From positions 113,172-177,171 of the forward strand of contig JAGATC010000017.1 of the NCBI GenBank assembly GCA_017621455.1: a stretch of DNA of 64,000 bases. The letters run 5' to 3'. A program made the position numbers and the translations under genes. The notes beneath the pieces are model-generated. The model was not told where the DNA came from, did no database searches, and saw only the letters and a list, made by a program, of their open reading frames with translations. The stretch is from Alistipes sp. Its GTDB lineage: Bacteria; Bacteroidota; Bacteroidia; Bacteroidales; Rikenellaceae. Every line of letters begins with the position of its first letter. Position 1 is the stretch's first letter. Positions 20,475 to 37,320 of the stretch are shown here, in pieces.

Positions 20475-20518
20475 AATTTATTCTGTTTTTTGTTATTATC
20501 ATTGAGTCTGTGTGGCAA

Positions 20519-21628
20519 CTACTGCGTAACGATATTACCGCCCTTGAATCTAACCACGTAGGCATCCTTAAAGGTCTTTTTAGCCTCCTCAAGGTCGCGC
20601 TTAGCAGCCTCACGCGAGGCGTAGCTACCGTAGCAATACTTATATTTGTATCGGCCCGTGCTCATCAGCAATCGCACACGGCCCTTATACCCCTTGAACT
20701 GATAGTCGTTCGTGTCAACCTCGTGCGTTGCCGATATTAGCTGAATGGTATAACCCTCCTCCAACGCCTCGTCACTCGCCGCAGGCTGTGCCTCACTCAC
20801 ACTCTGCTCCTCGGTTGTTGCCGACACATCTCCCGACAGCGCATCGAGACTCTCAAAGAAGCTAACAATAGCATCGCTAATAGCCCCCGCAATCTCCTTC
20901 TTACCCTTTTCCGAAGAGATATAGGCAAGGTCCTTAGCATTTGTCATATAACCCACCTCGATAAGCACGCCGTGACCCTCCAGATAGTAGAGCATGGTCC
21001 AAATCTTTCCCGACTTGACACCGAGGTTCTTAAGTCCCAACTTATTAATATTGTCGCAGCACTGCTGTGCAAACATACGGTTGCGAGGCTCGTTGTCGAG
21101 CTGGCGTGTGAGCACCTTGATAAAGCCCATCGACTTGGTGTCGAGGTCGTTGATGTCGAGCGCATCGCCATCGTCCGCAAAGAGGTTTGCACGGGCATTA
21201 TTCTGTTTCATCAGCGACTCGTCGAGCGACAATACCCACGCCTCACAGCCATTAGTGGTGGTGTTACCTATGGCGTTGGCGTGAATACCTACCGTAAGGT
21301 CAGCACCCTTGCTGTTGGCAAACTCAGCACGCATACGGTTATCCTTAGTCTGGTCGGCATTGTAGGCAGAATCGCAGTGGCGTGTGAGGTAGACATCCAA
21401 TTCGGGCATCTTCGTAGCGAGCTGACGACGCACCTCCTTCGATATGTCGAGGACAATATCCGCCTCATGCACCTTGCCCACAACCTTACCAGGACGGGGG
21501 CCTCCATGACCTGGGTCGAGTACCACCACTCTTTTTCGTGAGCTATCGACAACATTTCCCGCCTGTTGAGCGTTAGCAACAACAGGTAGCATAAGCGACA
21601 CAAGGAGTGCTATTATGAGATTTCTCAT
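20519..21628 (-). CDS. N-acetylmuramoyl-L-alanine amidase (Amidase_3) with C-terminal SPOR-like domain
   Basis: LDPGHGG, HEAD, GIHAN and LIEVGYMTN Zn and catalytic residues. Confidence 0.9.
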   Translation of the reverse strand: MRNLIIALLVSLMLPVVANAQQAGNVVDSSRKRVVVLDPGHGGPRPGKVVGKVHEADIVLDISKEVRRQLATKMPELDVYLTRHCDSAYNADQTKDNRMRAEFANSKGADLTVGIHANAIGNTTTNGCEAWVLSLDESLMKQNNARANLFADDGDALDINDLDTKSMGFIKVLTRQLDNEPRNRMFAQQCCDNINKLGLKNLGVKSGKIWTMLYYLEGHGVLIEVGYMTNAKDLAYISSEKGKKEIAGAISDAIVSFFESLDALSGDVSATTEEQSVSEAQPAASDEALEEGYTIQLISATHEVDTNDYQFKGYKGRVRLLMSTGRYKYKYCYGSYASREAAKRDLEEAKKTFKDAYVVRFKGGNIVTQ

Positions 21629-21781
21629 AAAATATTCCGGTTAATACAAAAAATTTACTATATTTGCGGGTTGTTCGCGCCATACGAGCGCGCACTCCCA
21701 TACGCAGGAGCGAGTGTTAACACTCAGTCCCTGTCGGGTTTGCCGACATGCGTCGGCAAAGTTACAAAAAATAATTGAATT

Positions 21782-24457
21782 TTGAGACGTTTTTACGTAA
21801 AATATCTCCCATCGGTGCTACTTGCCATGGTATTTCTGAGCTTCTGCTTTGGCCTTACTGCCGCAAGCAGAAGCACTTTCAGCATGCTATGGTCGAGTGA
21901 CTCCACAGCTATGTCATCCCCCCTTAGGGACACAACTGACGACAAAAGAGAGAGTCCCCAAGGTGAGCGCAAGCCCAGCGGAGGCGTCCGCTTTACGGAT
22001 ATTGTCGAGGGTAAGGCTGTGGACTCTGTCGTGTTCGATGCCCGCAACAAGCTCATTCATAGCTACAAGAGCGGCGATGTGACATACCAGGGCATGAATC
22101 TCAAGGCCGACTATATGCGTGTGGATATGCAGACAAAGGACATCTTTGCGCATGGCTACACCGACACCGTCAACCTCAAGGAGGATGGCACGCCCACAAC
22201 CACACAGCCCGAGTTCTCGGATGGTGGCACACCCTACTCTATGGATACCATCACCTACAACCTCGACTCGCGCAAGGCTAAGATTAAGGGTATCGCCACA
22301 CAGCAGGGCGACGGCTGGCTTATCGGTAGTAGCGTAAAGATGCACCCCGACGAGACCATACATATCGGTCACGGTATGTACACCACGTGTGACTGTGTCG
22401 ACCACCCCCACTTCTACCTTGCCATGACCCAGGCAAAGGTTATCCCTGGCAAGAAGGTGGTTACGGGCTACGCCTACCTCGTCATGGAGGATGTCCCCAT
22501 CTACTTCCCTGGTATTCCCGAGGGCTTCTTCCCCGTGCAGACAGGCCCTAAGTCGGGTCTTTTGATGCCCACCTATGGTGAGGATGCCAAGGGTTTCTTT
22601 ATACGTGATTTGGGCTACTACTTCACCTTTGGTGAGCACATGGACCTCGCCATACGTGGTGGTATCTACACACTCGGCTCGTGGGAGGTATCTGCCGTAT
22701 CGCAGTATGTTAAGCGCTACAAATTTAAGGGTAACTTCAACCTTATGTACTCGGCGATACGCACGGGCGAGAAGGGACAACCCGACTTTGTACAGCAGAA
22801 CAACTATAAAATCCAGTGGACACACTCACAGGATGCTAAGGCAAACCCTGGTTCTACATTCTCCGCCTCGGTGAACCTCACGTCAAGTGGTTATAGCCGC
22901 TACTCGGCGACTAACGTGAGCGACATCCTTGCTACGCAGACCAACTCATCTATCTCATATTCAAGAAACTGGGAGGGCACACCCTTCTCACTCGCTTTGA
23001 ACATGTCGGTGTCGCAGAACTCGCGCGATAAGACCATCGCCGTGACGCTGCCTACCATCACCTTCAACGTGGCGAGCTTCAACCCCTTCAAGCGTAAGGA
23101 GGCTGTGGGTAAGACTCGCTGGTATGAGAAGATTAAGATGAGCTACTCGATGAAGATGACCAACTCGGTGAATACTAAGGAGAACGAGATATTCACGCGT
23201 GAGACCCTCAACAAGATGAAGAACGGTATACAGCACACCATCCCCGTCTCTACATCGTTGTCGTTGTTCAACTACATCAACATCAGCCCCTCGTTCAACT
23301 ATACCGAGCGTTGGTACTTCAAGAAGGTGCGTCAAGAGTGGAACGAGGAGGCCCACAAGGTGGAGACCCTCGACCCGGAGTATGGCTTCTGGCGTATATA
23401 CAACTACAACGCCTCGGTGTCGGCAAATACCACCATCTACGGTACCTACACCGCAAAGAAGAAACAACGCAAGCTGCAGGCCGTGCGTCATACGCTTACG
23501 CCCAACATCGGCTTAAGCTATGCCCCCGACTTCAGCCGCCAGATGTATGGCTTCTACGAGACGGTGCAGACCGATACCACGGGTCGCTTCAAGGTCTATT
23601 CTCCATTTACCGACAACGCCTATGGCGTGCCAGGTAGTGGTCAGCAGTTTAGCATCAACTTCGGCCTGTCACAGTCGTTGGAGGCTAAGGTTCGCACCAA
23701 GGATACGGTCAAGAAGGTCAAGATTATCGACCAGCTCTCAATCACGGGCTCTTATAACTTCCTCGCCGACTCTATGCGTCTGTCGTCGCTCCCCATCCAG
23801 TTGCGTACGACGGTCTACCAGAATATCGCACTCAACCTATCGCTCACTCTCGACCCCTACGAGGTGTCGCCCCAGGGTGTGCGCTACAATAAGCTTATGT
23901 GGCGCCGCGGTCTGCCTGGCCGTATACAGTCGGCAAGCTGGAGCTTCGGTTATACGTTTAAGTCGCGCGAGGATAAGTCGAAGGTTGCGGGCAACGACAT
24001 CACGTCGCTCCCTGCCGAGTACTTCAACTCGTGGTCTGACCCCTATGGCCAGCTTAATCCCGCTATGCGACGACAATGGATGGCGGGCCAATACTATGAC
24101 TTCTCCATACCGTGGAACTTCGGGTTCAACTATAGCTTTAGCTATAATGCCCGCTATGTGAATAACGGAACCACGGGATATACGAAGAACATACAGCAGA
24201 CCATCAACTTCAATGCCAGCGTCAAGCTCACGCCCAAGACGATGATTACGGCGACGTCGGGTTACGACTTCACCTCCCGCAAGATGTCGATGACCTCTAT
24301 ATCTATTACGCGCGACCTGCACTGCTGGCAGATGTCGTTCACGTGGATACCCTTCGGTAACCACCGTAGCTGGGCCTTTAATATCGGCGTTAAGGCGGCA
24401 TCGTTGGCCGACTTGAAGTACGATAAGAGCTACTCACAGTACGACTATATGTATTAG
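21782..24457 (+). CDS. lptD: Putative LPS-assembly protein LptD (Bacteroidota type)
   Basis: YTTCD..HPHF, large beta-barrel, RDLHCW near the C-terminus; divergent from amidase-mlaD. Confidence 0.85.
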   Translation: MRRFYVKYLPSVLLAMVFLSFCFGLTAASRSTFSMLWSSDSTAMSSPLRDTTDDKRESPQGERKPSGGVRFTDIVEGKAVDSVVFDARNKLIHSYKSGDVTYQGMNLKADYMRVDMQTKDIFAHGYTDTVNLKEDGTPTTTQPEFSDGGTPYSMDTITYNLDSRKAKIKGIATQQGDGWLIGSSVKMHPDETIHIGHGMYTTCDCVDHPHFYLAMTQAKVIPGKKVVTGYAYLVMEDVPIYFPGIPEGFFPVQTGPKSGLLMPTYGEDAKGFFIRDLGYYFTFGEHMDLAIRGGIYTLGSWEVSAVSQYVKRYKFKGNFNLMYSAIRTGEKGQPDFVQQNNYKIQWTHSQDAKANPGSTFSASVNLTSSGYSRYSATNVSDILATQTNSSISYSRNWEGTPFSLALNMSVSQNSRDKTIAVTLPTITFNVASFNPFKRKEAVGKTRWYEKIKMSYSMKMTNSVNTKENEIFTRETLNKMKNGIQHTIPVSTSLSLFNYINISPSFNYTERWYFKKVRQEWNEEAHKVETLDPEYGFWRIYNYNASVSANTTIYGTYTAKKKQRKLQAVRHTLTPNIGLSYAPDFSRQMYGFYETVQTDTTGRFKVYSPFTDNAYGVPGSGQQFSINFGLSQSLEAKVRTKDTVKKVKIIDQLSITGSYNFLADSMRLSSLPIQLRTTVYQNIALNLSLTLDPYEVSPQGVRYNKLMWRRGLPGRIQSASWSFGYTFKSREDKSKVAGNDITSLPAEYFNSWSDPYGQLNPAMRRQWMAGQYYDFSIPWNFGFNYSFSYNARYVNNGTTGYTKNIQQTINFNASVKLTPKTMITATSGYDFTSRKMSMTSISITRDLHCWQMSFTWIPFGNHRSWAFNIGVKAASLADLKYDKSYSQYDYMY

Positions 24458-24572
24458 TGATGAGCCGCCTTTCGAGAGGTGGAGGAGATAGAAAGTTTGT
24501 TAGGGAGAGTAAATAGTTTAGGGAGTTTAGGGGAATTTACCTTAAGCTCCCTAAATTATCTAAAGCCCTCTT

Positions 24573-24707
24573 TAATCTTTGAAGTCAGAAGGGGCATAAT
24601 TTGGCGCTGATAAAGAGAAAGAGCGGATGGGACATACTTGGCTGGCGTATTTCCCATTCGCTCTTTGGATTGAGGCGTCGAAGGATGCCCCTTATCACTT
24701 CAAATTA
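24573..24707. mobile_element. MITE-like element, family A copy 3
   Basis: TTTGAAGTCAGAAGGGG ... CCCCTTATCACTTCAAATTA; internal GAGCGGATGGGA/TCCCATTCGCTC; overlaps the TAA of the last Ehr gene. Confidence 0.7.
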
Positions 24708-25454
24708 CTTGCGGAGTTTGGTTATACCATCAATAAAACACAATGGATGCGTGGGGGCGCCAGGCAACCATAGGTCGACATGATATTTATCGAGGAAGGT
24801 GCGGTCGATGGCGGGGCTATCAGCGTAGAGACCACCAGATATAGCCTCTGAGCCACATACGACCAGGATTTTAGGCTCAGCTATAGAGTTGTAGCAGATG
24901 TCGAGAGCCTCAGCCATATTGGCTGATATGGGACCCGTGAGCACAAGGCCATCGGCGTGGCGGGGAGAGGCGGTGAAGCCTACGCCATAGCGGCCAAAGT
25001 CGAAGTTGACGTTGCCTGTGGCATTTAGCTCCATCTCTACCGAGGCATCACCACCGGCAGATACCTCGCGCAGTTGGAGTGTCTGACCGAAATACTTGGC
25101 TATCTCGGGGCGCACAGCATCCTTCGTAAAGCATGGCTTTGTTTGACCTGCCATAACTACAAGGTCCTCACGACGTGTTGCAGCGAGGCGGTGCTCGTTC
25201 GTAAAGCGTATGTTCTTAGGGGCACAGCGCTGACACTCACCACAAAAGAGACACTTACCCATGTCAAGAGTTAGTGGCGAGGTGGTGATAGCCTTTGTAG
25301 GGCATATCGCCGCAGCACGCTCAATGTCGCTCTTATCGTCGGTGACGGTGAGCAGCGGGAAGCCACGAAACTCCTCAGTGAGGGTCACATTGTCGAGGTT
25401 GGGAATATACTGCCAGCCATGGCTGTGCAGAATCTTAAATTTTCCGAATATCAT
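24705..25454 (-). CDS. Ehr/Hyf-like ferredoxin + small-subunit fusion (HyfH/HyfI-like)
   Basis: CLFCGEC ferredoxin motif fused to a NuoB-like domain (FTASPRHADGLVLTGPIS). Confidence 0.85.
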   Translation of the reverse strand: MIFGKFKILHSHGWQYIPNLDNVTLTEEFRGFPLLTVTDDKSDIERAAAICPTKAITTSPLTLDMGKCLFCGECQRCAPKNIRFTNEHRLAATRREDLVVMAGQTKPCFTKDAVRPEIAKYFGQTLQLREVSAGGDASVEMELNATGNVNFDFGRYGVGFTASPRHADGLVLTGPISANMAEALDICYNSIAEPKILVVCGSEAISGGLYADSPAIDRTFLDKYHVDLWLPGAPTHPLCFIDGITKLRK

Positions 25455-25486
25455 AACTACTAAATATTCAAATGGTTATGCCGCGA

Positions 25487-27001
25487 CTATAGGTCGTGAC
25501 CGCAATACGACAGGTTGAAACTCTTGTTGTTGATGGGGAAGTCGGAGATACCCTCCGAGCGCACAGCGATGGCAAGGCCGAGCCAGTTATGCACACTGGG
25601 GTCCTTTACCTTATACTTGGCGATGGCTCCCTCCTTGTCGGTGAGTGCCACGTGGCATATCTCGCCACGCCAACCCTCTACAAGCGAGAACGATAGCGCC
25701 TCGGGCATAAGAGAAGCATCGTAGTCGGGGGCCTCGATGGTTGTAGATGGCTTATAGTTGGCAAGCACCTGGTGGATGTAGTCGATACTCTGCAGCACCT
25801 CGTCCATGCGCGTAGCGAGGCGCGACATTACATCGCCGTCGGTGCGCAGTATGGGCTCGTGGCTGAACTCCTCGGCATAGAAACCCGATGGGTGCGTAGC
25901 ACGCAGGTCACGCTTTAGTCCACTGGCACGTGCTACCTGACCCACGCCACCTATGCGCTGCATCTCATCCTTCGACACTAAGCCGCACTGCTCGAAACGC
26001 GCCAAAAGCGTCTGTGCCTCAAGTATATCCTCGCGCACCTCGTTATAGCGGCGGCGCACATCTGCCATATTTGTACGGATGGTCTCAATCTTAGCCTCAG
26101 TAAGTGGGAAGTTAGAGCCGAGAGGACGTATGAGGCTCTTACCGAAGCGGTTACCGCACCACGCCTGCGTGGTGTTGATGGTGACGGTACGCAGTGCCTC
26201 GCACGCCACCTGGTAGAGCTGGAAGCCAATATCGGTAGCGAGGGCACCCGTGTCGGCTAGGTGCATGGCGATGCGCTCGAGCTCGATGGCCACAAGGCGC
26301 TCACGCTTCAAGTCGTCGCCGATATCCTTGCCCGCGAGCTTCTCAACGAGCTCGGCGTATGCTGTGGTGTGACCTACAGCCGTATCGCCAGCAATGGACT
26401 CGGCGATAAGTGTCTGGCGCAGGCGGTTACCGTTGCGTATCATCTCGCTCTCGACGCCGCGATGCTGATAGCCTAAGGCTATTTCGAGGTGGAGCACCTG
26501 CTCACCGTCGCAGATAAAGCGGAAGGCTCCGGGTTCGATAATACCCGCATGGATAGGACCCACGTTCACCTCGTGAAGCTCCTCACCCTCGATGACATAG
26601 AATGGGTAGCTATCCATCGTCGATGTCTTGTCGCGTCTGTCGTGCGAGAAACGCAGAGGCTTAAGCCATGGGTGGTTATCGAAGGGTACGCCATAAAGCT
26701 CGAATATCTCACGCTCGAAGGGGTGGAACTGCTGGTGCACAGCCGTAAGCGACGCCAAGCCCTCGGCGTAGTAGTCGGGGACAAACGAGGTGATAAGCAC
26801 CTCACCCGTCTGGTCGTCGAGCAGTATCATGTAGAACCTCAAACCGTTCTCCACCTCCGTAGCAAAGTAGTGACCTACGTGGTAACGAGGGTCGTTCATG
26901 CGCTCCTTAAGGTCGTTATATAGCGCCACATAGTCGACAACAGGAATGTCGGCAATGGCTACAGCCGAGGCTGTATTGTTCGTAACATAAAACATCTCCA
27001 T
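25487..27001 (-). CDS. Ehr large subunit (HyfG/NuoCD-like, no NiFe ligands)
   Basis: VGPIHAGIIEPGAFRF, YQHRGVE, VEGWRGE, YKVKDPS, DFPINNKSFNLSYCGHDL. Confidence 0.88.
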   Translation of the reverse strand: MEMFYVTNNTASAVAIADIPVVDYVALYNDLKERMNDPRYHVGHYFATEVENGLRFYMILLDDQTGEVLITSFVPDYYAEGLASLTAVHQQFHPFEREIFELYGVPFDNHPWLKPLRFSHDRRDKTSTMDSYPFYVIEGEELHEVNVGPIHAGIIEPGAFRFICDGEQVLHLEIALGYQHRGVESEMIRNGNRLRQTLIAESIAGDTAVGHTTAYAELVEKLAGKDIGDDLKRERLVAIELERIAMHLADTGALATDIGFQLYQVACEALRTVTINTTQAWCGNRFGKSLIRPLGSNFPLTEAKIETIRTNMADVRRRYNEVREDILEAQTLLARFEQCGLVSKDEMQRIGGVGQVARASGLKRDLRATHPSGFYAEEFSHEPILRTDGDVMSRLATRMDEVLQSIDYIHQVLANYKPSTTIEAPDYDASLMPEALSFSLVEGWRGEICHVALTDKEGAIAKYKVKDPSVHNWLGLAIAVRSEGISDFPINNKSFNLSYCGHDL

Positions 27002-27003
27002 AG

Positions 27004-28575
27004 CTATTCGAGATTTTCTGCGTTAACATCTTCATTCTCTGTTGGCTCTTCCACTACGGGAACTGCGGAAGTATTGGGCGCCGTATGCTCTACAGCGGGC
27101 TGCTGCTTCTCGGCGAATACGACAATATTCTGCTCAACGACCTCCGTCTTAGCCTTAACAATGGGCGTATCGGTGATAATCGTGTCGATCATATCCGTAA
27201 GGAACTTAGGCTGCCAGAGACCCAGCACAACGGCCACAACCAGAGGAATTGATGCAATATACGAGAGGCGGCGATTTACGGCCGTGAGGTGAAGCTCATC
27301 CTGGTTGGAGTGGTAGCTGAGGCGCAACGAGCGCGACCATATAGAGTAGAGCACAACGCACATAAGCACCAACATAAGGATAAGTAGCCACCACTTACCC
27401 ACCGTGACAATCTCCGAGAAGATCATAATCTCCGAGACGAAGAGTGGCGAGGGTGGGAATGCCAAGAGCACAAGCGTGCCGACAATAAAGCCGATAGCAC
27501 CCACGCGGTTGATGTTCATATAGTTACCAATACGGTTGATGCTATAGCTGTCGTAGACATGTCGCATGATGCCAACGTGGAAGAACATCGAGCTCTTAAC
27601 AAACGTGTGGCACACGACATGGAACACCGCAGCCCAGAGCGCAACGCCACCGATGCCGAGGCCTATGGCCACGATACCCATATTCTCCACGGTAGAGTAC
27701 GACAGGAATCGTTTGTAGTTGTTCGCACGGCGCAGGAACATAGCACCCACAGCCAACGACAGCACACCGATGAGTATCAAGAGGTGGCGCGCCCATACAA
27801 ACACCTCACCCGCCGAGGCGTAGAGGTTGTATATACGCATTATCGACAAGAAGCCCGCGTTGACAAGTGCCGTAGAGATGAATGCCGAGGCGGGGGCAGG
27901 GGCTGCGTAGTTAGCATCGACACCCACGGTATACAAGGGGAAGATCTCCATCTTACAGCTGTAACCCACAACCATAAGCAGGAAGGCGACCTTCAAATAG
28001 AGGGGGTTACCCTCAACGATAGCCTCCTTGAGCGAGGCGTAGTCCAGTGCGCCCTCCGTAGCCACGGTAGAGAGCAGCAATATGCCGAGGTATGCCATAG
28101 CGATACCCGTAGAGCAGACGAAGACATACTTCCATGTAGCCTCCAACGACTGCTTGAACTCGCGGTGGTAGATGATACCCGCCGAGCAGATGGTCGTAAG
28201 CTCGAGGAACACCCATGTCATGGCGATATTGTCGGAGTAATATACGCACGTGATGGCCACAGCGAGGAGCATGAGTAGCGTGTAGTATGCCTTATAGGAG
28301 CGTGTAGATATGCCCTCGGCCTTGAGGTATGACGACGAGTGCAGAAGCGAGAAGCCCAACACCGCGGTCATAAGTGCATGGAACAGGAGCGCCATGCTGT
28401 CGGCACGGAAGATAGATAGTAGCACTGTGTCTACCCTATCGAAGTAGAAGACGAGAGCTATGCCCACCACCTGAACGAGGAAGAAGAGCGCCGCAATGAT
28501 GTTGGTCAAGCGCTCGGTGCGCACCACGAGGGGCAGGACTGCCAGAATTACCGAAATTATTAAATATGTAAGCAT
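27004..28575 (-). CDS. Ehr/HyfF-like antiporter-type membrane subunit
   Basis: WVFLELTT, ATWKY, AAPAPASA, KRFLSYSTVENMG. Confidence 0.85.
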   Translation of the reverse strand: MLTYLIISVILAVLPLVVRTERLTNIIAALFFLVQVVGIALVFYFDRVDTVLLSIFRADSMALLFHALMTAVLGFSLLHSSSYLKAEGISTRSYKAYYTLLMLLAVAITCVYYSDNIAMTWVFLELTTICSAGIIYHREFKQSLEATWKYVFVCSTGIAMAYLGILLLSTVATEGALDYASLKEAIVEGNPLYLKVAFLLMVVGYSCKMEIFPLYTVGVDANYAAPAPASAFISTALVNAGFLSIMRIYNLYASAGEVFVWARHLLILIGVLSLAVGAMFLRRANNYKRFLSYSTVENMGIVAIGLGIGGVALWAAVFHVVCHTFVKSSMFFHVGIMRHVYDSYSINRIGNYMNINRVGAIGFIVGTLVLLAFPPSPLFVSEIMIFSEIVTVGKWWLLILMLVLMCVVLYSIWSRSLRLSYHSNQDELHLTAVNRRLSYIASIPLVVAVVLGLWQPKFLTDMIDTIITDTPIVKAKTEVVEQNIVVFAEKQQPAVEHTAPNTSAVPVVEEPTENEDVNAENLE

Positions 28576-28579
28576 GGCG

Positions 28580-29206
28580 TTAGTCTTTAATAGAGGTTAA
28601 TGCTTCGCTCTCATCCGTGTTCATATCGTTATCCATACGGCGCAAGAACATGCCGAGCACAAGGATTGAGATAAGAATATCGAGCATAATTGCAAGGTTG
28701 ATAAGCATAGGTAGCTCCACACCTATCGCCATTGAGAACAGAAAGACACCATTTTCAATAACGAGGAAGCCGACAAGGTGGGCAAAGACACGCTTACGCA
28801 TAACGATAAGGATAAGTCCCGAGAGCAAGGCGTAGAGTGCCACACCAAACGATATGATGTCGGTGCTGTCGTCATGCATATAGTAGGTGATGGTACAGCT
28901 CGCCACAAGTGCCACGACAGACATCACCAACGAGCCGAACTGAGAGGACGAGCTGGTGATGCGGTTAATCTTCGTCTTGCGGATAACGTGTATAAGGATG
29001 ATGGGGATGATTATCGCCTTGAAGACAAGCGTTTCGACGATGATAAAGCCCATCTCCACTGGGTGGAACTCGTGCATACGAGCTATGGCCAAGCCGAAGA
29101 GAAGAAGTCCCTGCAGGGCAAGTATCATCGTATGCGTACGGAAACGGTCAGCCATCGACAGATAGATGAGCGTCAAAACGTATAATATAATGAGTGACAG
29201 TATCAT
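28580..29206 (-). CDS. Ehr/HyfE-like membrane subunit
   Basis: Highly hydrophobic; GFLVIENG motif. Confidence 0.83.
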   Translation of the reverse strand: MILSLIILYVLTLIYLSMADRFRTHTMILALQGLLLFGLAIARMHEFHPVEMGFIIVETLVFKAIIIPIILIHVIRKTKINRITSSSSQFGSLVMSVVALVASCTITYYMHDDSTDIISFGVALYALLSGLILIVMRKRVFAHLVGFLVIENGVFLFSMAIGVELPMLINLAIMLDILISILVLGMFLRRMDNDMNTDESEALTSIKD

Positions 29207-29212
29207 AATTGC

Positions 29213-30139
29213 TTAAATCTGAATATCTTGCATAAGTAGGAAGCCTACAAGGAGCACCAACGCCGAGAGCGCCGAGAGGGTGAGTATGTAGGTGATGTTT
29301 CGCGAGAGCTTATTGCGCGCACGTAACGACTCGACAACACCCACCGAGATACCTGCGCCAAGTATTGCCAAGGGCGCGGCAAAGCCCCAGTGGAAGCAGA
29401 ATACCGCCGAGACAGCATTCGCAGCGATGATGGCAAAGATGGCATTCTTAAGCCAGCCAGCCATCTGTATCATAGCCAGGTCGATACCCGAGTAGTCGAG
29501 GCACATAACCTCGTGAATCATCGTAAGCTCAAGGTGGGTCTTGGGGTCATCAACGGGCACGCGGCCACCCTCGATAAACATAATGATGACGAAGATGTAT
29601 GCCACCAAGAGAAGCACTATTGTGAGGTTAACGTCGAGCACCTGGCCCTCCGAGAATATCTCGGCAAATGAAGAGTCGCCACAGAATAGCGCCAACGTAG
29701 CAAGGCCAATCATCAGCGCAGGCTCAACAAGAGCTCCATAGAGCGCCTCACGCGCAGCACCCATACCCTCGAACGAGCTACCCGTATCCATCGCTGCGAG
29801 AATAAGCGCCAAGCGCGAGAATGCTAACAGGTAGGCCACCAAGATTATATCGCCGTGGAACGACAACAGCGGCTCGAGGTTGGCAATGGGAATAAATAGG
29901 AACGCCATGAGCGCAGCGCCCAGATATACGCAGGGGGCGATGCGGAACAGCGCCGTAGTAGTTGTTGAGTATACCGAGCCCTTACGCAAGAGTAGGCGCA
30001 CGTTATAGATATGTTGCAAGAAGCGAGTACCACGACGACCAGCCAGCAGAGCACGTGTTCGGTTGATAACACCCGTAATAGAGAGCGCTACGACAACCAT
30101 CAGCAGTGTATTGAGTAGTTTTATCAGCATAGCAATCAA
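29213..30139 (-). CDS. Ehr/HyfC (NuoH-like) membrane subunit
   Basis: GSSFEGMGAARE, GRVPVDDPKTHLELTMIHE. Confidence 0.87.
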   Translation of the reverse strand: MIAMLIKLLNTLLMVVVALSITGVINRTRALLAGRRGTRFLQHIYNVRLLLRKGSVYSTTTTALFRIAPCVYLGAALMAFLFIPIANLEPLLSFHGDIILVAYLLAFSRLALILAAMDTGSSFEGMGAAREALYGALVEPALMIGLATLALFCGDSSFAEIFSEGQVLDVNLTIVLLLVAYIFVIIMFIEGGRVPVDDPKTHLELTMIHEVMCLDYSGIDLAMIQMAGWLKNAIFAIIAANAVSAVFCFHWGFAAPLAILGAGISVGVVESLRARNKLSRNITYILTLSALSALVLLVGFLLMQDIQI

Positions 30140-30149
30140 TATTTTAGGG

Positions 30150-32132
30150 TTACAATACTCCGAAGAGGGTTAGGACTAATACAACAACAAGGAACACCAG
30201 AGCGAAGGTAATGTAGTTGTTTACCCTACCCGTTCTTAGGCGCATGACATACTCGTTGATGCGGTGCATCATCTGCACCCACCAACGACCAAGCAACGAG
30301 TCAACCTTATCGCTATGCTTGATGCGGTAGCGGTGTGGCGCAGGGAAAATCTCGCCCTTATCCACAGCACGACCATCCACCGTATCCTTCATTAGCGGGC
30401 GACCAATGCTCTCCAGACCCTCCGAGAACGACTCGCCGGTATACTGCATGCGGGTGTTTAGCGCCGTGAAGCCACAGCCCCACGTAGGACCTTCGGTCAC
30501 AACACGCTTGCGCTGTGCTCTACGCTTCAATACATAGAGCAACGCAACCACCGCAACGAAGGCGATTCCTATGTAGCTGAGCGTCTCGAGTGACGAGCCG
30601 AAGTGTATCGACGCCAACGTGGGATCAGTGCCTGTAACGGCCTCAGCAACAAGCGCTATAGGGTGAATAACAAACTGTGGCATTAGGCCAATCATAAGGA
30701 TAAAGGCTGCGGGGATTGCCATAGCCACTATACGCTGATTATCCACTTCGGTGCACTCAGCGACATGGTGTGAGCGAGGCGAACCGAGGAATACCACGCC
30801 ATATAGTTTCGTGAAGGCAAGCACCACAAAACCACCAATAAGCGAGAGTGCGATGATACCCGTAACCGAGTACAACACCTCGTGACCGCTACCCACGCCA
30901 TTAAACATGCCTATATAAATAAGGAGCTCCGACACAAAGCCATTGAGCGGAGGCAAGGCACAGATAGCCACCGTGGCAAAGAGCATCATAATAGCCGTAA
31001 TGGGCATATGTTTGGCAAGACCACCCATCTCGTTCATCGCCGTGGTGTGCATCTTCGAGTAGATGTTACCTGCACTGAAGAAGAGCATCGTCTTAAAGAG
31101 CGAGTGGTTTACCATGTGCAGTAGAGCGCCACACATGCCACACATACCCACAATAGGGCTACCCGCAGCGTGACCCACGGCAGCGATACCAAGACCGATG
31201 AGTATCACACCCACGTTCTCGATACTTGAGTATGCCAACATACGCTTAATGTCGTTCTGCATGGCGGCAAGTATTACACCCCAAAGGCCTGTAACAGCAC
31301 CCGAAATAAGGATGATAAGACCCACCGAATATAGCAGCGAGCCATCCTCAACAGCCTGCATTAGGCGGATGATGCCGTAGACACCCGTTTTAATCATCAC
31401 GCCCGACATAATCGCCGACACGTGTGATGGTGCTGCGGGGTGAGCCTCAGGCAGCCATATATGCATTGGGAAGAGGCCAGCCTTCATACCGAAGCCGATA
31501 AAGAGGATAACAAAGAGTGGTAGTGGCGCCTCAAGGTGAAAATAGTCCTGGATGGCTTCGAAGTTTGCCGAGCCTGTAACATTGTAAAGAAGCACGAAAC
31601 CTGCCACCAAGAATATAAAACCTATATGCATCATTACCAGGTAGTTGAGCGCAGCACGGCGCACATCCTGACGCTCCGCCTCAAACAGAATGAGTATGAA
31701 CGATGCGATGGTCATCAGCTCCCACGAGAAGAGGAACGAGAAACCACCACTCGACATAACCACCAGCATCATCGACACCACCAACGTAACCAACGCCGTA
31801 TAGTGGATGGAGATGTGTGCCGAGGAGAAACGCTCAAGGTAACCCGCGACATAACCGCGCGAGTATAGCACCGTAGCCACCGATGCCACCGAAATGATAA
31901 CGAGCATAAGCGCCGTGAGCTTATCTATGGCGAAGCTCTCCGCACCGAAGAGCGTCGTCGTAAACTCCACTGCATCGAGCTTCATGTCGCAGAATGCCAT
32001 GACTGCCACAGCAATGGCCGCCACAGCAACAAGCGATACCACGCCCGTTGCCACCCACACCTTGAGCCTCTTCGGAACAAGGAAGATGAGGAAGATGACG
32101 AGCATCGCCGCAAGTAGTGAATACAAATACAT
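30150..32132 (-). CDS. Ehr/HyfB (NuoL-like) antiporter subunit
   Basis: WELMT, KAGLFPMHIWLPEAHPAAPSHVSA, KRMLAYSSIENVG, WGCGF. Confidence 0.88.
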   Translation of the reverse strand: MYLYSLLAAMLVIFLIFLVPKRLKVWVATGVVSLVAVAAIAVAVMAFCDMKLDAVEFTTTLFGAESFAIDKLTALMLVIISVASVATVLYSRGYVAGYLERFSSAHISIHYTALVTLVVSMMLVVMSSGGFSFLFSWELMTIASFILILFEAERQDVRRAALNYLVMMHIGFIFLVAGFVLLYNVTGSANFEAIQDYFHLEAPLPLFVILFIGFGMKAGLFPMHIWLPEAHPAAPSHVSAIMSGVMIKTGVYGIIRLMQAVEDGSLLYSVGLIILISGAVTGLWGVILAAMQNDIKRMLAYSSIENVGVILIGLGIAAVGHAAGSPIVGMCGMCGALLHMVNHSLFKTMLFFSAGNIYSKMHTTAMNEMGGLAKHMPITAIMMLFATVAICALPPLNGFVSELLIYIGMFNGVGSGHEVLYSVTGIIALSLIGGFVVLAFTKLYGVVFLGSPRSHHVAECTEVDNQRIVAMAIPAAFILMIGLMPQFVIHPIALVAEAVTGTDPTLASIHFGSSLETLSYIGIAFVAVVALLYVLKRRAQRKRVVTEGPTWGCGFTALNTRMQYTGESFSEGLESIGRPLMKDTVDGRAVDKGEIFPAPHRYRIKHSDKVDSLLGRWWVQMMHRINEYVMRLRTGRVNNYITFALVFLVVVLVLTLFGVL

Positions 32133-32163
32133 ATAACTTATTTAGTTTATCTAACGAGCTGGG

Positions 32164-32874
32164 TTATAGCTTATTAACAGTCGACACAACGGTCGTGGCA
32201 ACCACTGCCGCAGTCTCGGTACGCAAGCGTTCACGACCGAGCGTGATGGCAGTAAAGCCATTTTGGGCTGCAAAGTTAATCTCTTCTTTCGAAAAGTCAC
32301 CCTCTGGGCCTATTAAAATTAGCGTATCACGCGATTTTTTTACCAATTTACCTAAATACTCCTTATGGCCGAAGCTCGAATCGCAGTGCGCGATGAATTT
32401 ATCGCCCTCGAAATCCATGGCGATAACGTCGCGTACCGAGGTCATGGGGTGGAGTATGGGGTGGTACGCCTTAAGTGACTGCTTGACTGCTGCTGTTATC
32501 ACCTTCTCTTCACGCTCATCCTTAATCTGTCGGCGCTCGCTGTGCTCACACTCGATGGGATAGATCTCAGAAACACCTATTTCCGTAGCTTTTTCCAAAA
32601 ACCACTCAAACCTATCGATAATTTTTGTGGGTGCCACGGCCATCACAAGTCGGTAGTCCAAAGGCTCATACTCGGGAGTCGTCTCAACCACCTCCACCAC
32701 ACAACGTTTTGCGTTGTCTTCCACCACTTTACAGCGATGCATAGCACCTCTGCCGTCGGTCAAATGGAGCTCATCACCGACGGTCATTCTGAGCACTCTG
32801 ATGCAGTGTTTCGACTCCTCCTCCGTGAGCGTGTGACGCGGGAGTGAAATTTCTGGGGCATAAAATAGTTGCAT
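32164..32874 (-). CDS. rsmE: 16S rRNA m3U1498 methyltransferase
   Basis: HCIRVLR, KATEIGV, IGPEGDFS, LGRERLRTETAA. Confidence 0.95.
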   Translation of the reverse strand: MQLFYAPEISLPRHTLTEEESKHCIRVLRMTVGDELHLTDGRGAMHRCKVVEDNAKRCVVEVVETTPEYEPLDYRLVMAVAPTKIIDRFEWFLEKATEIGVSEIYPIECEHSERRQIKDEREEKVITAAVKQSLKAYHPILHPMTSVRDVIAMDFEGDKFIAHCDSSFGHKEYLGKLVKKSRDTLILIGPEGDFSKEEINFAAQNGFTAITLGRERLRTETAAVVATTVVSTVNKL

Positions 32875-32923
32875 TGGTCAATAATTTTTTTAACTTTGCA
32901 AAGTTAATTAAAAAATATCATAG

Positions 32924-35173
32924 ATGAAACCTATTTTGCTATTATCATCACTATTGTGTGTTATGACACTAAACTATTCATGCGCCGAAGAGGCTGCACC
33001 CGAGAAGGGTAACCCTCTTATGGAGGAGTGGACTACCGAGTATGGTGTGCCACCATTCGACGAGATTCGTGCCGAGCACTTCGCCCCAGCATTCACCGAG
33101 GCTATTGCTATGCACACTGCTGAGATTGACGCTATTGTCGCCTCAGAGGAGGAACCCACGTTCGACAATACCATCGTGGCTTTGGACAACGCCGGCATCA
33201 AACTCTCGGAGATAAGCCTCCTCTTTGGCATGCTCTCATCATCGGACCTCACACCCGAGATGGAGGCAGTACAGACAGAGATAACCCCCATCTTGGAGGA
33301 TCACTTCAACAGCATCATGCTTAACGACGCACTCTTCCAGCGCGTTAAGGCGGTATACGACAAACGTGCATCACTCAAGCTCGACGACGTTCAGATGCGC
33401 TTAGTGGAGAAGACCTACAACGACTTTGTACGCTCGGGAGCACTGCTCGAGGGCCAGGATAAGGAGCGCCTAAAGCAGATAAACGCCGACCTCGCCATGC
33501 TCACCGTAGAGTTCAACAAGAACCTCCTTGCTGAGAATGGTGCCTTCACGCTCCTCGTTGAGGAGAACCAGGTTACCGAGCTTCCTGAGGGTGTGAAAGC
33601 TCAGGCACGCGAGGCTGCCGAGGCTGAGGGCAAGACGGGCTACCTCTTCACGCTTGACAAGCCCTCGATGCTACCCTTCCTCACCTACTCATCGAACCGC
33701 GACCTTCGTCGTGAGCTATACAACGGCTACCTTATGCGTTGCAACAACGACAACGCCCACGACAACAAGGAGATTGTCAAAAAGATGACCGAATTGCGTA
33801 TCGAGAAGGCCAATCTTCTTGGCTTCGATTCATACTCGGCATACGTCACGGCCGACCAGATGGCAGGCACTCCCGAGGCCGTTTACGAACTCTTGAACGA
33901 GATATGGGAGCCCGCCGTGGAGTCTGCCAAGGAGGAGTTGGCACAGATGAAGGCTATGTTTGAGCGAGAGCATCCCGGACAGACCTTCGAGATGTCGGAC
34001 TGGTGGTACTACGCTGAGAAGGTGCGTAAGCAGAAGTATCAGCTCGACGAGGAGGCCGTACGTCAGTACCTCTCGTTGGACAACGTACGCGAGGGCATGT
34101 TCTACCTTGCTAACCGCCTCTATGGCATTACGTTCCGCCCCATCACCGTACCCCGCTACCACAAAGAGTGCACCGTATATGAGGTTCTCGACCACGACCA
34201 GTCACACATCGGCGTGCTCTACATCGACCCATATCCCCGTAAGGAGAAGAGCGGCGGCGCATGGTGTGGCAACTTCACCGAGCAGCGCTATGTTGATGGC
34301 GTGCGCAAGGCCCCCGTTGTAGGCATCGTTTGCAACTTCACACCTCCCACGGGCGACACCCCATCGTTGCTCTCGTTCGACGAGGCAGAGACCATGTTCC
34401 ACGAGTTTGGCCACGCGCTACACTTCCTCTTCGCTGATGTCCGCTACCGTGGTCTCACTGAAGTTGAGGGCGACTTTGTGGAGCTCCCATCGCAGATTAT
34501 GGAGAACTGGGCCTTCGAGCCTGAGATTTTGAAGATGTACGCTAAGCACCACCGTACAGGCGAGGTTATCCCCGATAATCTTATCGCTAAGATTCAGCGT
34601 GCTTCGCTCTTCAACCAGGGCTTCACCACCACGGAGCTTGCAGCTGCGGCACTTATCGACATGGATATCCACACCTTGGAGCAGATGCCCGCAAACTTCG
34701 ACGTTGTAGCCTTCGAGAAGTATAACCTTGCACAGCGTGGCCTTATCCCCGAGATTGCACCCCGCTACCGCTACACCTACTTCGCACACATCTTTGCTGG
34801 TGGCTACTCTTCGGGCTACTACTTCTACCTCTGGGCTGAGGTACTCGACAAGGATGCCTTCGAGGCATTTAAGTCGAGCCGCGACATCTGCGACCGAGAG
34901 CTTGCCAACAGCTTCCGCTACGACCTCTTGGCACAGGGTGGCCAGCGTCCGGGCATGGAGATGTATCGCACATTCCGAGGTGCCGACCCCGACAAGACGC
35001 CTATGCTCAAGGCACGTGGCCTATGGAAGGAGCCCGAGCCCGTTGCAGACACCCTCGCAGAGGGCACTACAGAGCTACAGCCTACTGTGCAGCCTGGCAG
35101 ACCTATGCTTAAGACCGAGCCTAAGGCTGGTCGTCCCATCAAGCCCACAGTTAAGGACAACAGCCCCAACTAA
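32924..35173 (+). CDS. M3 family metallopeptidase (Dcp-like), probable lipoprotein
   Basis: Lipobox LNYSC, HEFGHALH, FVELPSQIMENW, GGYSSGYY. Confidence 0.92.
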   Translation: MKPILLLSSLLCVMTLNYSCAEEAAPEKGNPLMEEWTTEYGVPPFDEIRAEHFAPAFTEAIAMHTAEIDAIVASEEEPTFDNTIVALDNAGIKLSEISLLFGMLSSSDLTPEMEAVQTEITPILEDHFNSIMLNDALFQRVKAVYDKRASLKLDDVQMRLVEKTYNDFVRSGALLEGQDKERLKQINADLAMLTVEFNKNLLAENGAFTLLVEENQVTELPEGVKAQAREAAEAEGKTGYLFTLDKPSMLPFLTYSSNRDLRRELYNGYLMRCNNDNAHDNKEIVKKMTELRIEKANLLGFDSYSAYVTADQMAGTPEAVYELLNEIWEPAVESAKEELAQMKAMFEREHPGQTFEMSDWWYYAEKVRKQKYQLDEEAVRQYLSLDNVREGMFYLANRLYGITFRPITVPRYHKECTVYEVLDHDQSHIGVLYIDPYPRKEKSGGAWCGNFTEQRYVDGVRKAPVVGIVCNFTPPTGDTPSLLSFDEAETMFHEFGHALHFLFADVRYRGLTEVEGDFVELPSQIMENWAFEPEILKMYAKHHRTGEVIPDNLIAKIQRASLFNQGFTTTELAAAALIDMDIHTLEQMPANFDVVAFEKYNLAQRGLIPEIAPRYRYTYFAHIFAGGYSSGYYFYLWAEVLDKDAFEAFKSSRDICDRELANSFRYDLLAQGGQRPGMEMYRTFRGADPDKTPMLKARGLWKEPEPVADTLAEGTTELQPTVQPGRPMLKTEPKAGRPIKPTVKDNSPN

Positions 35174-35202
35174 GCAAGACGAAACTAACTAAAATATCAA
35201 CT

Positions 35203-37320
35203 ATGACAACAACAGCACTTATTATGTCAGCATTGACAGCTATGTCGACATGTGGCGATAAGCCCCTTGTTGATGTGCCCGAGTCACTCAAGGGCAACCC
35301 ATTGGTTGAGGAGTGGAACACACCCTACCAGACACCTCCATTCTCGGAGATTGAGTATGCACACTACGAGCCAGCGTTCGACTACGCAATTGAGCTCAAC
35401 CGCGCCGAGATTGACGCCATCGTTAACAACCCCGAGGCTCCAACGTTTGAGAACACCATCGTGGCTATGAACAACTCGGGCGAGTTGCTCGGCCGCATCT
35501 CTGGCGTATTCTTCGTGCTCAACAACTGCATGTCATCGCCCGAGATGCAGCAGATAGCTATGAACATCACCCCAAAGCTTACCGAGCTCTCGAACGACGT
35601 GTCGCTCAACCCCGCACTCTTCGAGCGTGTGAAGGTTGTGTACGACCAGCGCAAGAAGCTCCACCTCGACCAGGAGGATATGATGCTCTTGGAGGAGACC
35701 TATAAGGGCTTCTCACGCTCGGGTGCTCTGCTCGAGGGTGAGGCTCGCGAGCTCTACCGCCAGTACTCTTCGGAGCTCTCACAGCTCACACTCCAGTTTG
35801 GCCAGAACGCTCTTGGCGCTACCAACGCCTTTTCGTACAACATCACCGACCCCGCAAAGGTTGCCGAGTTGCCCGACTTCGTAAAGGATGGCTTGGCTGC
35901 TGAGGCTGCGGCACGTGGCGAGGAGGGCTGGACCGTAACTCTTGACGCACCCAGCTATGGTCCCTTCATGACCTACTCTACACAGCGTGACATCAAAGAG
36001 GCACTCTACCGCGCTTACAACACCCGTGGCATCGGTGGCGAGTTCGACAACACCGAGAACATCCGTCGCATCGCTGAGCTCCGCCTCAACATCGCCAACC
36101 TCCTCGGCTACAAGTGCTATGCAGACTACGTCCTCGAGGACCGCATGGCTGAGAGCACCAAGACCGTGAATGGCTTCCTCAACCAGCTCAACAAGGCTAC
36201 GCTAAGCTATGCTAAGCGCGATGTTGCCGACGTTACCGCCTACGCTCACTCACTCGGCTTCGAGGGCGAGCTTATGCCTTGGGACTTCGGCTACTACAAC
36301 GAGAAGTATAAGGAGGCTATGTACTCTATCAATGACGAGCAGATTAAGCCCTACCTACAGCTCGAGAACGTTAAGCAGGCGGTATTTATGCTTGCTGGCG
36401 AGCTCTACGGATTGACATTCACCGAGGTGGACAACATCGAGACATACCACCCCGAGGCTACCGTATACGAGGTACGCGACGATAAGGGTGAGCTTATGGC
36501 TATCCTCTACCTCGACTTCTTCCCACGCGAGTCGAAGCGTCAGGGTGCTTGGATGACCGAGTTCCGTGGCGTTAAGGTTCAGGATGGCGAGGAGCAGCGT
36601 CCTTTAGTTCAGCTCGTTATGAACTTCACCAAGCCCACTGCTAACACTCCATCGTTGCTCACCTTCGACGAGTTCACCACCTTCCTCCACGAGTTTGGTC
36701 ACGGCCTCCACGGCATCCTTGCTCACGGTAAGTATGAGTCTATCAACGGCACATCGGTTAAGCGCGACTTCGTGGAGCTCCCATCGCAGATTATGGAGAA
36801 CTGGGCTACCGAGAAGGAGTATCTCGACCTCTGGGCTAAGCACTACGTTACTGGCGAGCCTATGCCCGCAGAGCTTATCGAGAAGCTCGTAGCTGCTAAG
36901 AACTACCTTGCTGCTTACTACAACGTGCGCCAGCTCTCATTCGGTATGCTCGATATGAAGTGGCACACCATCACTGAGCCATACAGTGGCGACATCCTCG
37001 AGTTCGAGGCTAAGGCTATCTCTCCTACTCAGGTATTGCCTATCGTAGATGGCACAGCTATGGGTCCCGCCTTTACGCACATCTTCAGCGGTGGCTATGC
37101 TGCTGGCTACTATGGTTATAAGTGGGCTGAGGTACTCTCTGCTGATGCCTTCTCATACTTCAAGGAGAAGGGCATCTTCTCAGACGAGGTTGCGGGCAAG
37201 TTCCGCCACGAGGTATTGGAGAAGGGTGGCCACGAACACCCCATGACTCTCTACAAGAACTTCCGCGGTCACAAGCCCAAGACTCAGGCTCTTATCGACC
37301 AGATGGGTCTTAAGAAGTAG
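35203..37320 (+). CDS. M3 family metallopeptidase (Dcp-like), paralog
   Basis: HEFGHGLH, FVELPSQIMENW, GGYAAGYYGYKWAE. Confidence 0.92.
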   Translation: MTTTALIMSALTAMSTCGDKPLVDVPESLKGNPLVEEWNTPYQTPPFSEIEYAHYEPAFDYAIELNRAEIDAIVNNPEAPTFENTIVAMNNSGELLGRISGVFFVLNNCMSSPEMQQIAMNITPKLTELSNDVSLNPALFERVKVVYDQRKKLHLDQEDMMLLEETYKGFSRSGALLEGEARELYRQYSSELSQLTLQFGQNALGATNAFSYNITDPAKVAELPDFVKDGLAAEAAARGEEGWTVTLDAPSYGPFMTYSTQRDIKEALYRAYNTRGIGGEFDNTENIRRIAELRLNIANLLGYKCYADYVLEDRMAESTKTVNGFLNQLNKATLSYAKRDVADVTAYAHSLGFEGELMPWDFGYYNEKYKEAMYSINDEQIKPYLQLENVKQAVFMLAGELYGLTFTEVDNIETYHPEATVYEVRDDKGELMAILYLDFFPRESKRQGAWMTEFRGVKVQDGEEQRPLVQLVMNFTKPTANTPSLLTFDEFTTFLHEFGHGLHGILAHGKYESINGTSVKRDFVELPSQIMENWATEKEYLDLWAKHYVTGEPMPAELIEKLVAAKNYLAAYYNVRQLSFGMLDMKWHTITEPYSGDILEFEAKAISPTQVLPIVDGTAMGPAFTHIFSGGYAAGYYGYKWAEVLSADAFSYFKEKGIFSDEVAGKFRHEVLEKGGHEHPMTLYKNFRGHKPKTQALIDQMGLKK

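Follow-up and report, generated by a model that had tools for sequence, protein, structure and literature searches.

What is left for a hydrogenase-like membrane complex to do once the residues that hold its NiFe site, and most of those that hold its iron-sulfur clusters, are gone? This question is raised by six genes of a gut bacterium, Alistipes sp. (Rikenellaceae, Bacteroidales; GenBank assembly GCA_017621455.1), which lie in a 64,000-nt stretch of contig JAGATC010000017.1 (positions 113,172 to 177,171), here called the window. A first-pass annotation of the window had described them as a hydrogenase-4-like complex of the Ehr (energy-converting/Ech-hydrogenase-related) type and had suggested either a repurposed ion transporter or a complex in need of a redox partner. 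We found that the large subunit has no NiFe ligands, that the fused small subunit keeps the ligands of a single [4Fe-4S] cluster, and that the proximal cluster, N2, was lost at least twice in the family.

A six-gene Ehr operon without NiFe ligands

The six open reading frames (ORFs) are tightly packed on the minus strand and form an operon at window positions 24705 to 32132, with the order A-B-C-D-L-S. In reading order, the genes are HyfB-like, HyfC/NuoH-like, HyfE-like, HyfF-like, NuoCD/HyfG-like and a fusion of a ferredoxin with a NuoB-like domain, as follows.

30150..32132, minus strand: ehrA, HyfB/NuoL-like antiporter-like subunit, 660 amino acids (aa); Pfam Proton_antipo_M (1.8e-58), NCBIfam hydrogenase 4 subunit B (1.3e-156, below the equivalog cut-off)
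29213..30139, minus strand: ehrB, NuoH/HyfC/HycD-like membrane subunit, 308 aa; Pfam NADHdh (1.1e-26)
28580..29206, minus strand: ehrC, HyfE-like membrane subunit, 208 aa; NCBIfam hydrogenase 4 membrane subunit (HyfE) (3e-11)
27004..28575, minus strand: ehrD, HyfF/NuoN-like antiporter-like subunit, 523 aa; Pfam Proton_antipo_M (2.1e-36)
25487..27001, minus strand: ehrL, NuoC-NuoD/HyfG-like large subunit, 504 aa (P0001), without NiFe ligands; Pfam Complex1_49kDa and Complex1_30kDa
24705..25454, minus strand: ehrS, fused small subunit, 249 aa (P0002); Pfam Oxidored_q6 and Fer4_15
25125..25454, minus strand: ehrS residues 1-110, half-degenerate HyfH/HycF/NuoI-like ferredoxin domain with one predicted [4Fe-4S] site (C51, C68, C71, C74), by alignment
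24708..25106, minus strand: ehrS residues 117-249, NuoB/HyfI-like domain with the N2 ligand positions replaced (D136, V139, E203, A233), by alignment

The NCBIfam matches of all six ORFs were far under the equivalog cut-offs, so we regard the proteins as relatives of Hyf and Nuo subunits and not as members of those families.

Ligand positions in EhrL and EhrS were mapped by alignment to MbhJ/MbhL, to HycE, and to the Escherichia coli K-12 proteins HyfI/HycG/NuoB, HyfG/HycE/NuoCD and HyfH/HycF/NuoI; the best solved relatives of EhrL are MbhL and HycE. EhrL carries AESIAGDTAVGH at residues 200 to 211 and SFNLSYCGHDL at residues 494 to 504, its C terminus, and neither the RxCGxC nor the DPCxxC motif of group 4 [NiFe] hydrogenases was found in it. 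The columns of the four NiFe cysteines (C241, C244, C531 and C534 of HycE) are occupied by A204, T207, S498 and G501; the absence of NiFe ligands, which the first-pass annotation had read from the two motifs, was thus confirmed column by column against HycE and MbhL. The protein terminates at HDL, with no C-terminal extension of the kind removed by hydrogenase proteases. The Tyr and His columns of E. coli NuoCD, which we take to be the quinone-head ligands of complex I, are G205 and P157 in EhrL.

Because the hydrogenase-4-like subunit set is present and the NiFe ligands are gone, we assign the operon to Ehr: it is the Alistipes form of a Bacteroidales branch of these complexes. Ehr membership was seen in the subunit set of the six ORFs (Pfam and NCBIfam), in the missing NiFe cysteines and in the grouping of the operon with other NiFe-less complexes.

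One of three ancestral iron-sulfur clusters remains

The translation of ehrS contains the motifs SAGGDASVEME, CGSEAISGG, PGAP, ICP and CLFCGEC, the first three standing, as had been noted before, in place of CxxC, GxCA and PGCP. The four cysteine columns of N2 are D136, V139, E203 and A233, with D136 and A137 in the register of the NuoB "CC" pair, and in the alignment to E. coli NuoB the N2 pattern (CC...C...CP) was not found. The ferredoxin part keeps C51, the CP cysteine of motif 1, and C68, C71 and C74, the CxxCxxC of motif 2; missing from it are cysteines 1 to 3 of motif 1 and, in motif 2, the CP cysteine, which is A78. In the 2x[4Fe-4S] ferredoxin fold, those four cysteines bind one cluster, and the earlier estimate that the fused ferredoxin was left with ligands for about one [4Fe-4S] cluster agreed with the alignment to HyfH, HycF and NuoI. 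By the Nqo9/NuoI topology and the alignment, the retained cluster is presumably N6b, the middle one between the entry cluster and N2. EhrS has lost both the proximal (N2-type) cluster and the distal ferredoxin (entry) cluster, and one of the ancestral three is left.

Among 121 homologues of at least 80% identity, D136, E203, C51 and C71 and the motifs around them were invariant, C68 was present in 119 and C74 in 120; position 137 was Cys or Ala at about 50:50, and position 233 was Ala or Thr. The pattern of cofactor loss was also seen in nine orthologous operons from the genus and the order and in 29 further Bacteroidales orthologues, and sharing on this scale means that it is not the product of chance or sequencing error. 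All four cluster cysteines were present in 30/30 Bacteroidales sequences, in which C77 varied.

Substitute N2 ligands were sought in the NuoB-like part. Conservation of C200 and C239 does not extend past close relatives, and C187 occurs in only 23 of the 30 sequences; an alternative ligand set of C187, C200, C239 and position 137 was rejected, since no conserved four-ligand site is possible and C187 alone is insufficient. As N2 and the distal cluster are both lost and no alternative set is conserved, there is no canonical electron wire. The first-pass annotation had reached the same conclusion, and it stands, the check for restored small-subunit ligands by alignment and conservation having come out negative. 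An AlphaFold2 model of EhrS (predicted local distance difference test score, 92.5) placed the C-terminal half on the MbhJ and NuoB/PSST chains at about 2.2 Å over about 131 residues, and this half is accordingly predicted to have the NuoB fold.

Distribution of Ehr and repeated loss of N2

Orthologues of the operon occurred in 77 of 301 sampled Bacteroidales genomes (26%), representing 63 of 209 genera. The commonest pattern at the N2 site in this order was D-N-C-D-N (18/30 sequences), and the D-A-V-E-A of Alistipes is the most stripped form in the set. Among representatives clustered at 50% identity, 71 relatives were found at E <= 1e-30, with a mixed ligand state; two representatives, P0142 and P0150, were excluded from the counts. 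Both resemble frameshifted or chimeric calls of Alistipes-type small subunits, and in P0150 all ferredoxin cysteines read as other residues.

Searches of species-representative genomes with non-Alistipes N2-less sequences as queries gave at least 594 confirmed relative loci, and those listed came from Actinomycetota, Acidobacteriota, Pseudomonadota, Verrucomicrobiota, Planctomycetota, Omnitrophota, Ignavibacteriota and Bacteroidota and from one Nitrososphaerales metagenome-assembled genome (MAG). Counts for the wider family refer to 80 loci kept out of this number, in which 81 small subunits were tallied and 78 large subunits were recovered. Both CxxC motifs were missing from 78/78 large subunits, so all relatives in the kept loci are of the Ehr type. 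The single ferredoxin cluster was kept in 80/81 small subunits, and because this four-cysteine cluster is nearly universal in the family, the complex is not cofactor-free. The four N2 cysteines were kept in 45/81 and lost in 36/81. Loss of N2 is thus not a general Ehr property, since about half of the sampled relatives retain it. The relatives fell into three subtypes.

Subtype I: gene order ABCDLS; large-subunit motifs AES.SGDS..H and SFNLSY.G.D.; Acidobacteriota, Verrucomicrobiota and others; N2 kept
Subtype II: gene order BCDLSA; Pseudomonadota and a few Acidobacteriota; three clusters
Subtype III: gene order BCDLSA; Actinomycetota; N2 replaced by D-G-E-D-S

Motifs and gene order place the Alistipes operon in subtype I, but it is without N2.

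In a maximum-likelihood tree, the N2-less sequences of Bacteroidales formed a clade (Shimodaira-Hasegawa-like approximate likelihood ratio test [SH-aLRT] support, 98) nested among N2-containing sequences, and those of Actinomycetota formed another (SH-aLRT, 98) that was sister to N2-containing Proteobacterial sequences. A constraint test was run with the ligand columns removed and with four long-branch rows (P0197, P0218, P0165 and P0168) excluded. A single clade for all N2-less rows was rejected (delta lnL, 153; approximately unbiased test, p-AU 4e-9, for an N2-less group that was defined after the tree was seen), and two changes suffice on the tree. Gene order and large-subunit motifs separate the two N2-less clades independently of the tree. 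We conclude that the family lost N2 on two or more occasions. In each of the two lineages, Asp replaced ligand 1, and either Asp or Glu took the place of ligand 3.

Some of the loci showed features of their own. Within 10 kb, L030, L062 and L100 each have another Ehr-like gene set, either partial or complete, and L145, a Bacteroidales operon, has two tandem A genes. L043, on a contig labelled as an uncultured Bifidobacteriaceae MAG, is a subtype-I operon whose small subunit falls inside the Verrucomicrobiota clade; mis-binning or gene transfer may explain this.

Selection on the operon

All six genes are under strong purifying selection. The ratios of nonsynonymous to synonymous substitution (dN/dS) against three congeners were 0.04 to 0.15, lowest for S, and are rough because dS was near saturation; they led us to reject pseudogenization. 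All six frames are intact here and in nine orthologous operons, drawn from Alistipes and one other family. In 21/21 orthologous operons compared, 12 further Bacteroidales among them, L and S were more conserved than A and D; identities to G031, for example, were 52% for S, 48.5% for L, 34% for A and 32% for D.

Membrane arm

The first-pass annotation had described the antiporter-like subunits as intact, and this was borne out, as the Glu/Lys pattern of HyfB and HyfF is kept. By alignment, EhrA has E138, K217, K248 and E402, the pattern of E. coli HyfB and NuoM, and EhrD has E125, K208, N239 and E382, exactly the pattern of E. coli HyfF; the conserved Glu of transmembrane helix 5 (TM5), the Lys of TM7/8 and the Lys/Glu of TM12 that mark MrpA/D-type subunits are present in both. 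Compared with HyfC, HycD and NuoH, EhrB keeps the motifs DTGSSFEG..RE, EP, PVDDP..LEL..HE and DYSG, and one of its loops is altered by a 3-residue insertion and changed acidic residues. EhrC keeps its membrane Glu, which is part of the ENG motif.

Genome context and neighboring genes

The assembly is 2.14 Mb in size and 98% complete, and proteins nearly identical to those it encodes come from sources named Alistipes. The ehr genes are its only genes of the NuoB family (PF01058) and of the antiporter family (PF00361), so this genome has neither complex I nor Mrp. The assembly also carries genes of the Rnf and Nqr types and one [FeFe] hydrogenase. HypD (PF01924), the only one of the Hyp maturation genes that was searched for, was not found, although the controls responded; CrcB (PF02537) and the fluoride riboswitch were not found either, and that search did not extend to CLC-F. 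The operon is present in 14 of 24 congeners, and many congeners have neither the operon nor complex I.

No gene for a redox partner was found beside the operon here or in 12 other Bacteroidales, among which the flanks differ. A conserved neighbor as partner was rejected on this ground: one locus is flanked by rubrerythrin and a flavin reductase-rubredoxin, and others by endonuclease III-like genes or weak DUF6427 matches. Because the flanks of these 12 are unrelated to each other, no partner appears to be encoded in cis.

In the window, the operon is surrounded by ordinary housekeeping genes, encoding LptD (21782-24457, plus strand), an M3 peptidyl-dipeptidase (Dcp-like; 32924-35173, plus strand) and an AmiC-type amidase with a SPOR domain (20519-21628, minus strand). 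The gene for the 16S rRNA methyltransferase RsmE (rsmE, 32164-32874, minus strand) lies 31 bp upstream of ehrA (gap, 32133-32163). This linkage was found in all nine Alistipes operons compared and in 0/12 other Bacteroidales, and since it is kept across the genus, rsmE and the ehr genes may be cotranscribed in Alistipes. A match to the Bacteroidetes -7 promoter consensus TAnnTTTG, TAACTTTG, occurs twice on the minus strand, at 32899-32906, 25 nt before the rsmE start, and at 32271-32278, within the 3' end of rsmE and about 139 nt before ehrA; at such a length, matches are expected by chance.

Fluoride riboswitches and related operons

A fluoride riboswitch (RF01734) stood directly upstream of the first gene in six of seven BCDLSA loci, of the Proteobacterial and Actinobacterial forms. 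The operons that it precedes are both N2-containing (L059, L066 and L073) and N2-lacking (L037, L056 and L087). The same regulation with and without N2 argues that the cluster is not needed for the physiological role; taken together with the 36/81 small subunits that lack N2 and with its loss on at least two occasions, it indicates that N2 is dispensable for whatever the family does. According to Baker et al. (2012), as reported in PMC11139923, genes for "formate hydrogen lyase" and for Na+/H+ antiporters are among those most commonly associated with fluoride riboswitches, and the cytoplasm is acidified under fluoride stress (PMC11139923). Our results suggest that the riboswitch-associated "formate hydrogen lyase" operons are in fact Ehr complexes.

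Three of the loci, L059, L073 and L087, have three or four fluoride riboswitches each within 20 kb around a BCDLSA-type Ehr operon, which suggests fluoride-response gene islands in Mesorhizobium, Paraburkholderia and Actinocatenispora. At the Alistipes operon itself, a fluoride riboswitch or other regulatory RNA was rejected, as there was no Rfam match at E <= 1 in window positions 20000 to 37000 and none to RF01734 genome-wide.

Comparison with known systems

Ehr has been defined as a hydrogenase-like subunit set without NiFe ligands (PMC6349859, PMC4758237). The Ehr complexes of Geobacter sulfurreducens (EhrA-D, L and S; GSU0739-45), described by Coppi (2005) and Marreiros et al. (2013) as these works are cited in PMC6349859, PMC4758237 and PMC7894505, resemble the Alistipes complex in having a group-4 hydrogenase subunit set, a large subunit without NiFe cysteines and antiporter-like subunits. 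The A-B-C-D-L-S order of subunit types also agrees with the Geobacter naming (PMC7894505), in a comparison made at the level of subunit names. Published Ehr complexes are defined by the missing NiFe ligands only, whereas the Alistipes complex additionally lacks the proximal cluster and one ferredoxin cluster. We found no description of a lost proximal cluster in Ehr in the literature searched, outside of which Marreiros 2013 and Baker 2012 lay, so that a prior mention is possible.

E. coli hydrogenase 4 (HyfABCDEFGHI) and hydrogenase 3/formate hydrogenlyase (Hyc; PDB 7Z0S) give the best family matches for every ehr subunit, and the Glu/Lys pattern of HyfB and HyfF is identical in EhrA and EhrD. 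These enzymes contain a NiFe site and a proximal cluster, carry two further clusters in HyfH/HycF, and possess the HyfA/HycB subunit, Hyp maturation and a C-terminal cleavage peptide; the Alistipes complex has none of these, lacks HyfD and has the HyfH- and HyfI-like parts fused. The marks of a group 4 [NiFe] hydrogenase (NiFe motifs, a four-cysteine proximal cluster and HypD) were not found. Pyrococcus MBH (6CFW) and MBX/MBS are the closest solved structures for L and S, and MBS shows that a NiFe site can be replaced by another chemistry, but MBH and MBS, unlike the Alistipes complex, keep all three [4Fe-4S] clusters and have an Mrp-type Na+ module. The composition of complex I (NDH-1), with separate NuoA, NuoJ and NuoK and three antiporter-like subunits, was not found either, as the operon has six genes and two antiporter-like subunits.

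Mrp antiporters share with the Alistipes complex MrpA/D-type antiporter-like subunits with conserved Lys and Glu. NuoH-, NuoCD- and NuoB-like subunits, which the Alistipes operon encodes, are absent from Mrp, and Mrp includes MrpB, E, F and G; the seven-subunit composition (MrpA-G) was not seen, and no MrpB-, E-, F- or G-like ORFs are present in the operon. The BCDLSA-type relatives, finally, are set apart by their fluoride riboswitches, which the Alistipes operon does not have.

Discussion

The most likely reading of these data, with about an even chance of being right, is that the complex acts as a translocator or antiporter of ions (H+ and/or Na+) and thereby serves pH and ion homeostasis. 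With the middle cluster two cluster-hops away from the large-subunit pocket, electrons cannot arrive there, and we infer that the complex is neither a hydrogenase nor a reductase of the complex-I or MBS type. The membrane arm would move H+ and/or Na+ in the service of pH and ion homeostasis, and would do so without redox input, the mode in which Mrp runs. The cap formed by L and S would probably have been retained as a structural and conformational partner of the NuoH-like subunit, and the lone cluster would probably be structural or redox sensing (gating) and no electron conduit.

Several points weigh against this interpretation. The assignment of the kept cluster to N6b comes from alignment and textbook ferredoxin topology and not from a structure of the ehr complex, and to our knowledge no transport or redox assay has been made on any Ehr complex, so the mechanism is one that we infer. 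The peripheral subunits are the most conserved ones and the four-cysteine cluster is near universal, and a purely structural cap would not obviously need either; Mrp antiporters work without such a cap. RF01734 was found in 0/7 subtype-I loci and 0/12 Bacteroidales operons and nowhere in the Alistipes genome, so that carrying a role in fluoride or pH response over to Alistipes would be an extrapolation, and a weak one, by analogy with the BCDLSA-type loci. The operon is missing from 10 of 24 congeners, which points to an accessory role.

The conservation of L and S, and of the four cluster cysteines in 80/81 relatives and in all Bacteroidales sequences, is what one might expect of a redox-driven pump or oxidoreductase, in which ferredoxin or flavodoxin would supply the single [4Fe-4S] cluster with electrons for a nearby acceptor, or a cofactor of a kind that sequence does not predict would sit at a carboxylate-lined former N2 site, and redox changes would drive the membrane arm. 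The recurrence of Asp at ligand 1 and Asp or Glu at ligand 3 in two independent N2-less lineages also favors such a pump, as does a genome rich in ferredoxin-linked metabolism (Rnf and [FeFe] hydrogenase). However, positions 2 and 4 are Val and Ala in Alistipes, which leaves at most two carboxylates at the old N2 site; L has neither the quinone-binding Tyr and His nor NiFe ligands, and no partner gene is linked to the operon. Moreover, energy coupling in complex I arises from chemistry at the pocket, which would be beyond the reach of the remaining cluster. We therefore consider a redox-driven pump possible but rather unlikely. A role in hydrogen metabolism must be weighed on account of Hyq of Azorhizobium caulinodans (hyqRBCEFGI), the only relative with a genetic phenotype, which has six structural genes in the same order as Alistipes and a large subunit, HyqG, that likewise has 504 residues and lacks both CxxC motifs (PMC2650096, PMC3357923). 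Its operon belongs to the nif regulon of an aerobe; deletion slowed diazotrophic growth, H2 recycling was attributed to this "endo-hydrogenase," and H2:quinone activity was inferred (PMC2650096, PMC3357923). On this model, the Alistipes complex would have a cryptic hydrogen-linked activity without NiFe ligands. Yet the NuoB-like HyqI stands unfused and has the full set of four N2 cysteines (PMC3357923), in contrast to the ferredoxin-fused Alistipes subunit, which has none, so the operon is not of the Hyq type in this respect; a NiFe site in Hyq was judged "uncertain, if not unlikely" by the very authors who described it (PMC3357923). With HypD not found in the genome and an [FeFe] hydrogenase already there, we regard such an activity in Alistipes as very improbable. 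Least probable of all, and scarcely credible, is a decaying remnant without function. A stepwise cofactor loss from three clusters through D-N-C-D-N in most Bacteroidales to D-A-V-E-A in Alistipes would fit decay, and so would the absence of the operon from those 10 congeners, but the six intact frames under purifying selection, the conservation of the replaced positions themselves and an operon structure kept across 63 genera all speak against it.

To return to the ion translocator, a more specific form of it can be imagined, which we offer as a speculation that is probably wrong. In it, a secondary ion translocator would be capped by the peripheral arm, which would serve regulation or coupling; the lone [4Fe-4S] cluster would be a redox or oxygen sensor that gates transport; and the carboxylates at N2 ligands 1 and 3, which Bacteroidales and Actinomycetota acquired independently, would make up a new site for protons or cations in communication with the NuoH-like subunit. 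If this were true, gut Bacteroidales would have a complex-I-derived machine that works in pH and ion homeostasis without redox turnover.

Annotations of the operon routinely read "NADH:ubiquinone oxidoreductase" or "Ni,Fe-hydrogenase III small subunit," labels that would mislead metabolic models of hydrogen and respiration in the gut. Ehr complexes, which others have named a missing link between hydrogenases and complex I, are widespread, with the confirmed loci and the share of Bacteroidales genomes given above. That N2 was discarded at least twice while the peripheral subunits stayed the most conserved and one cluster was retained narrows the range of possible mechanisms: the role of Ehr, whatever its nature, needs no electrons at the old active site.

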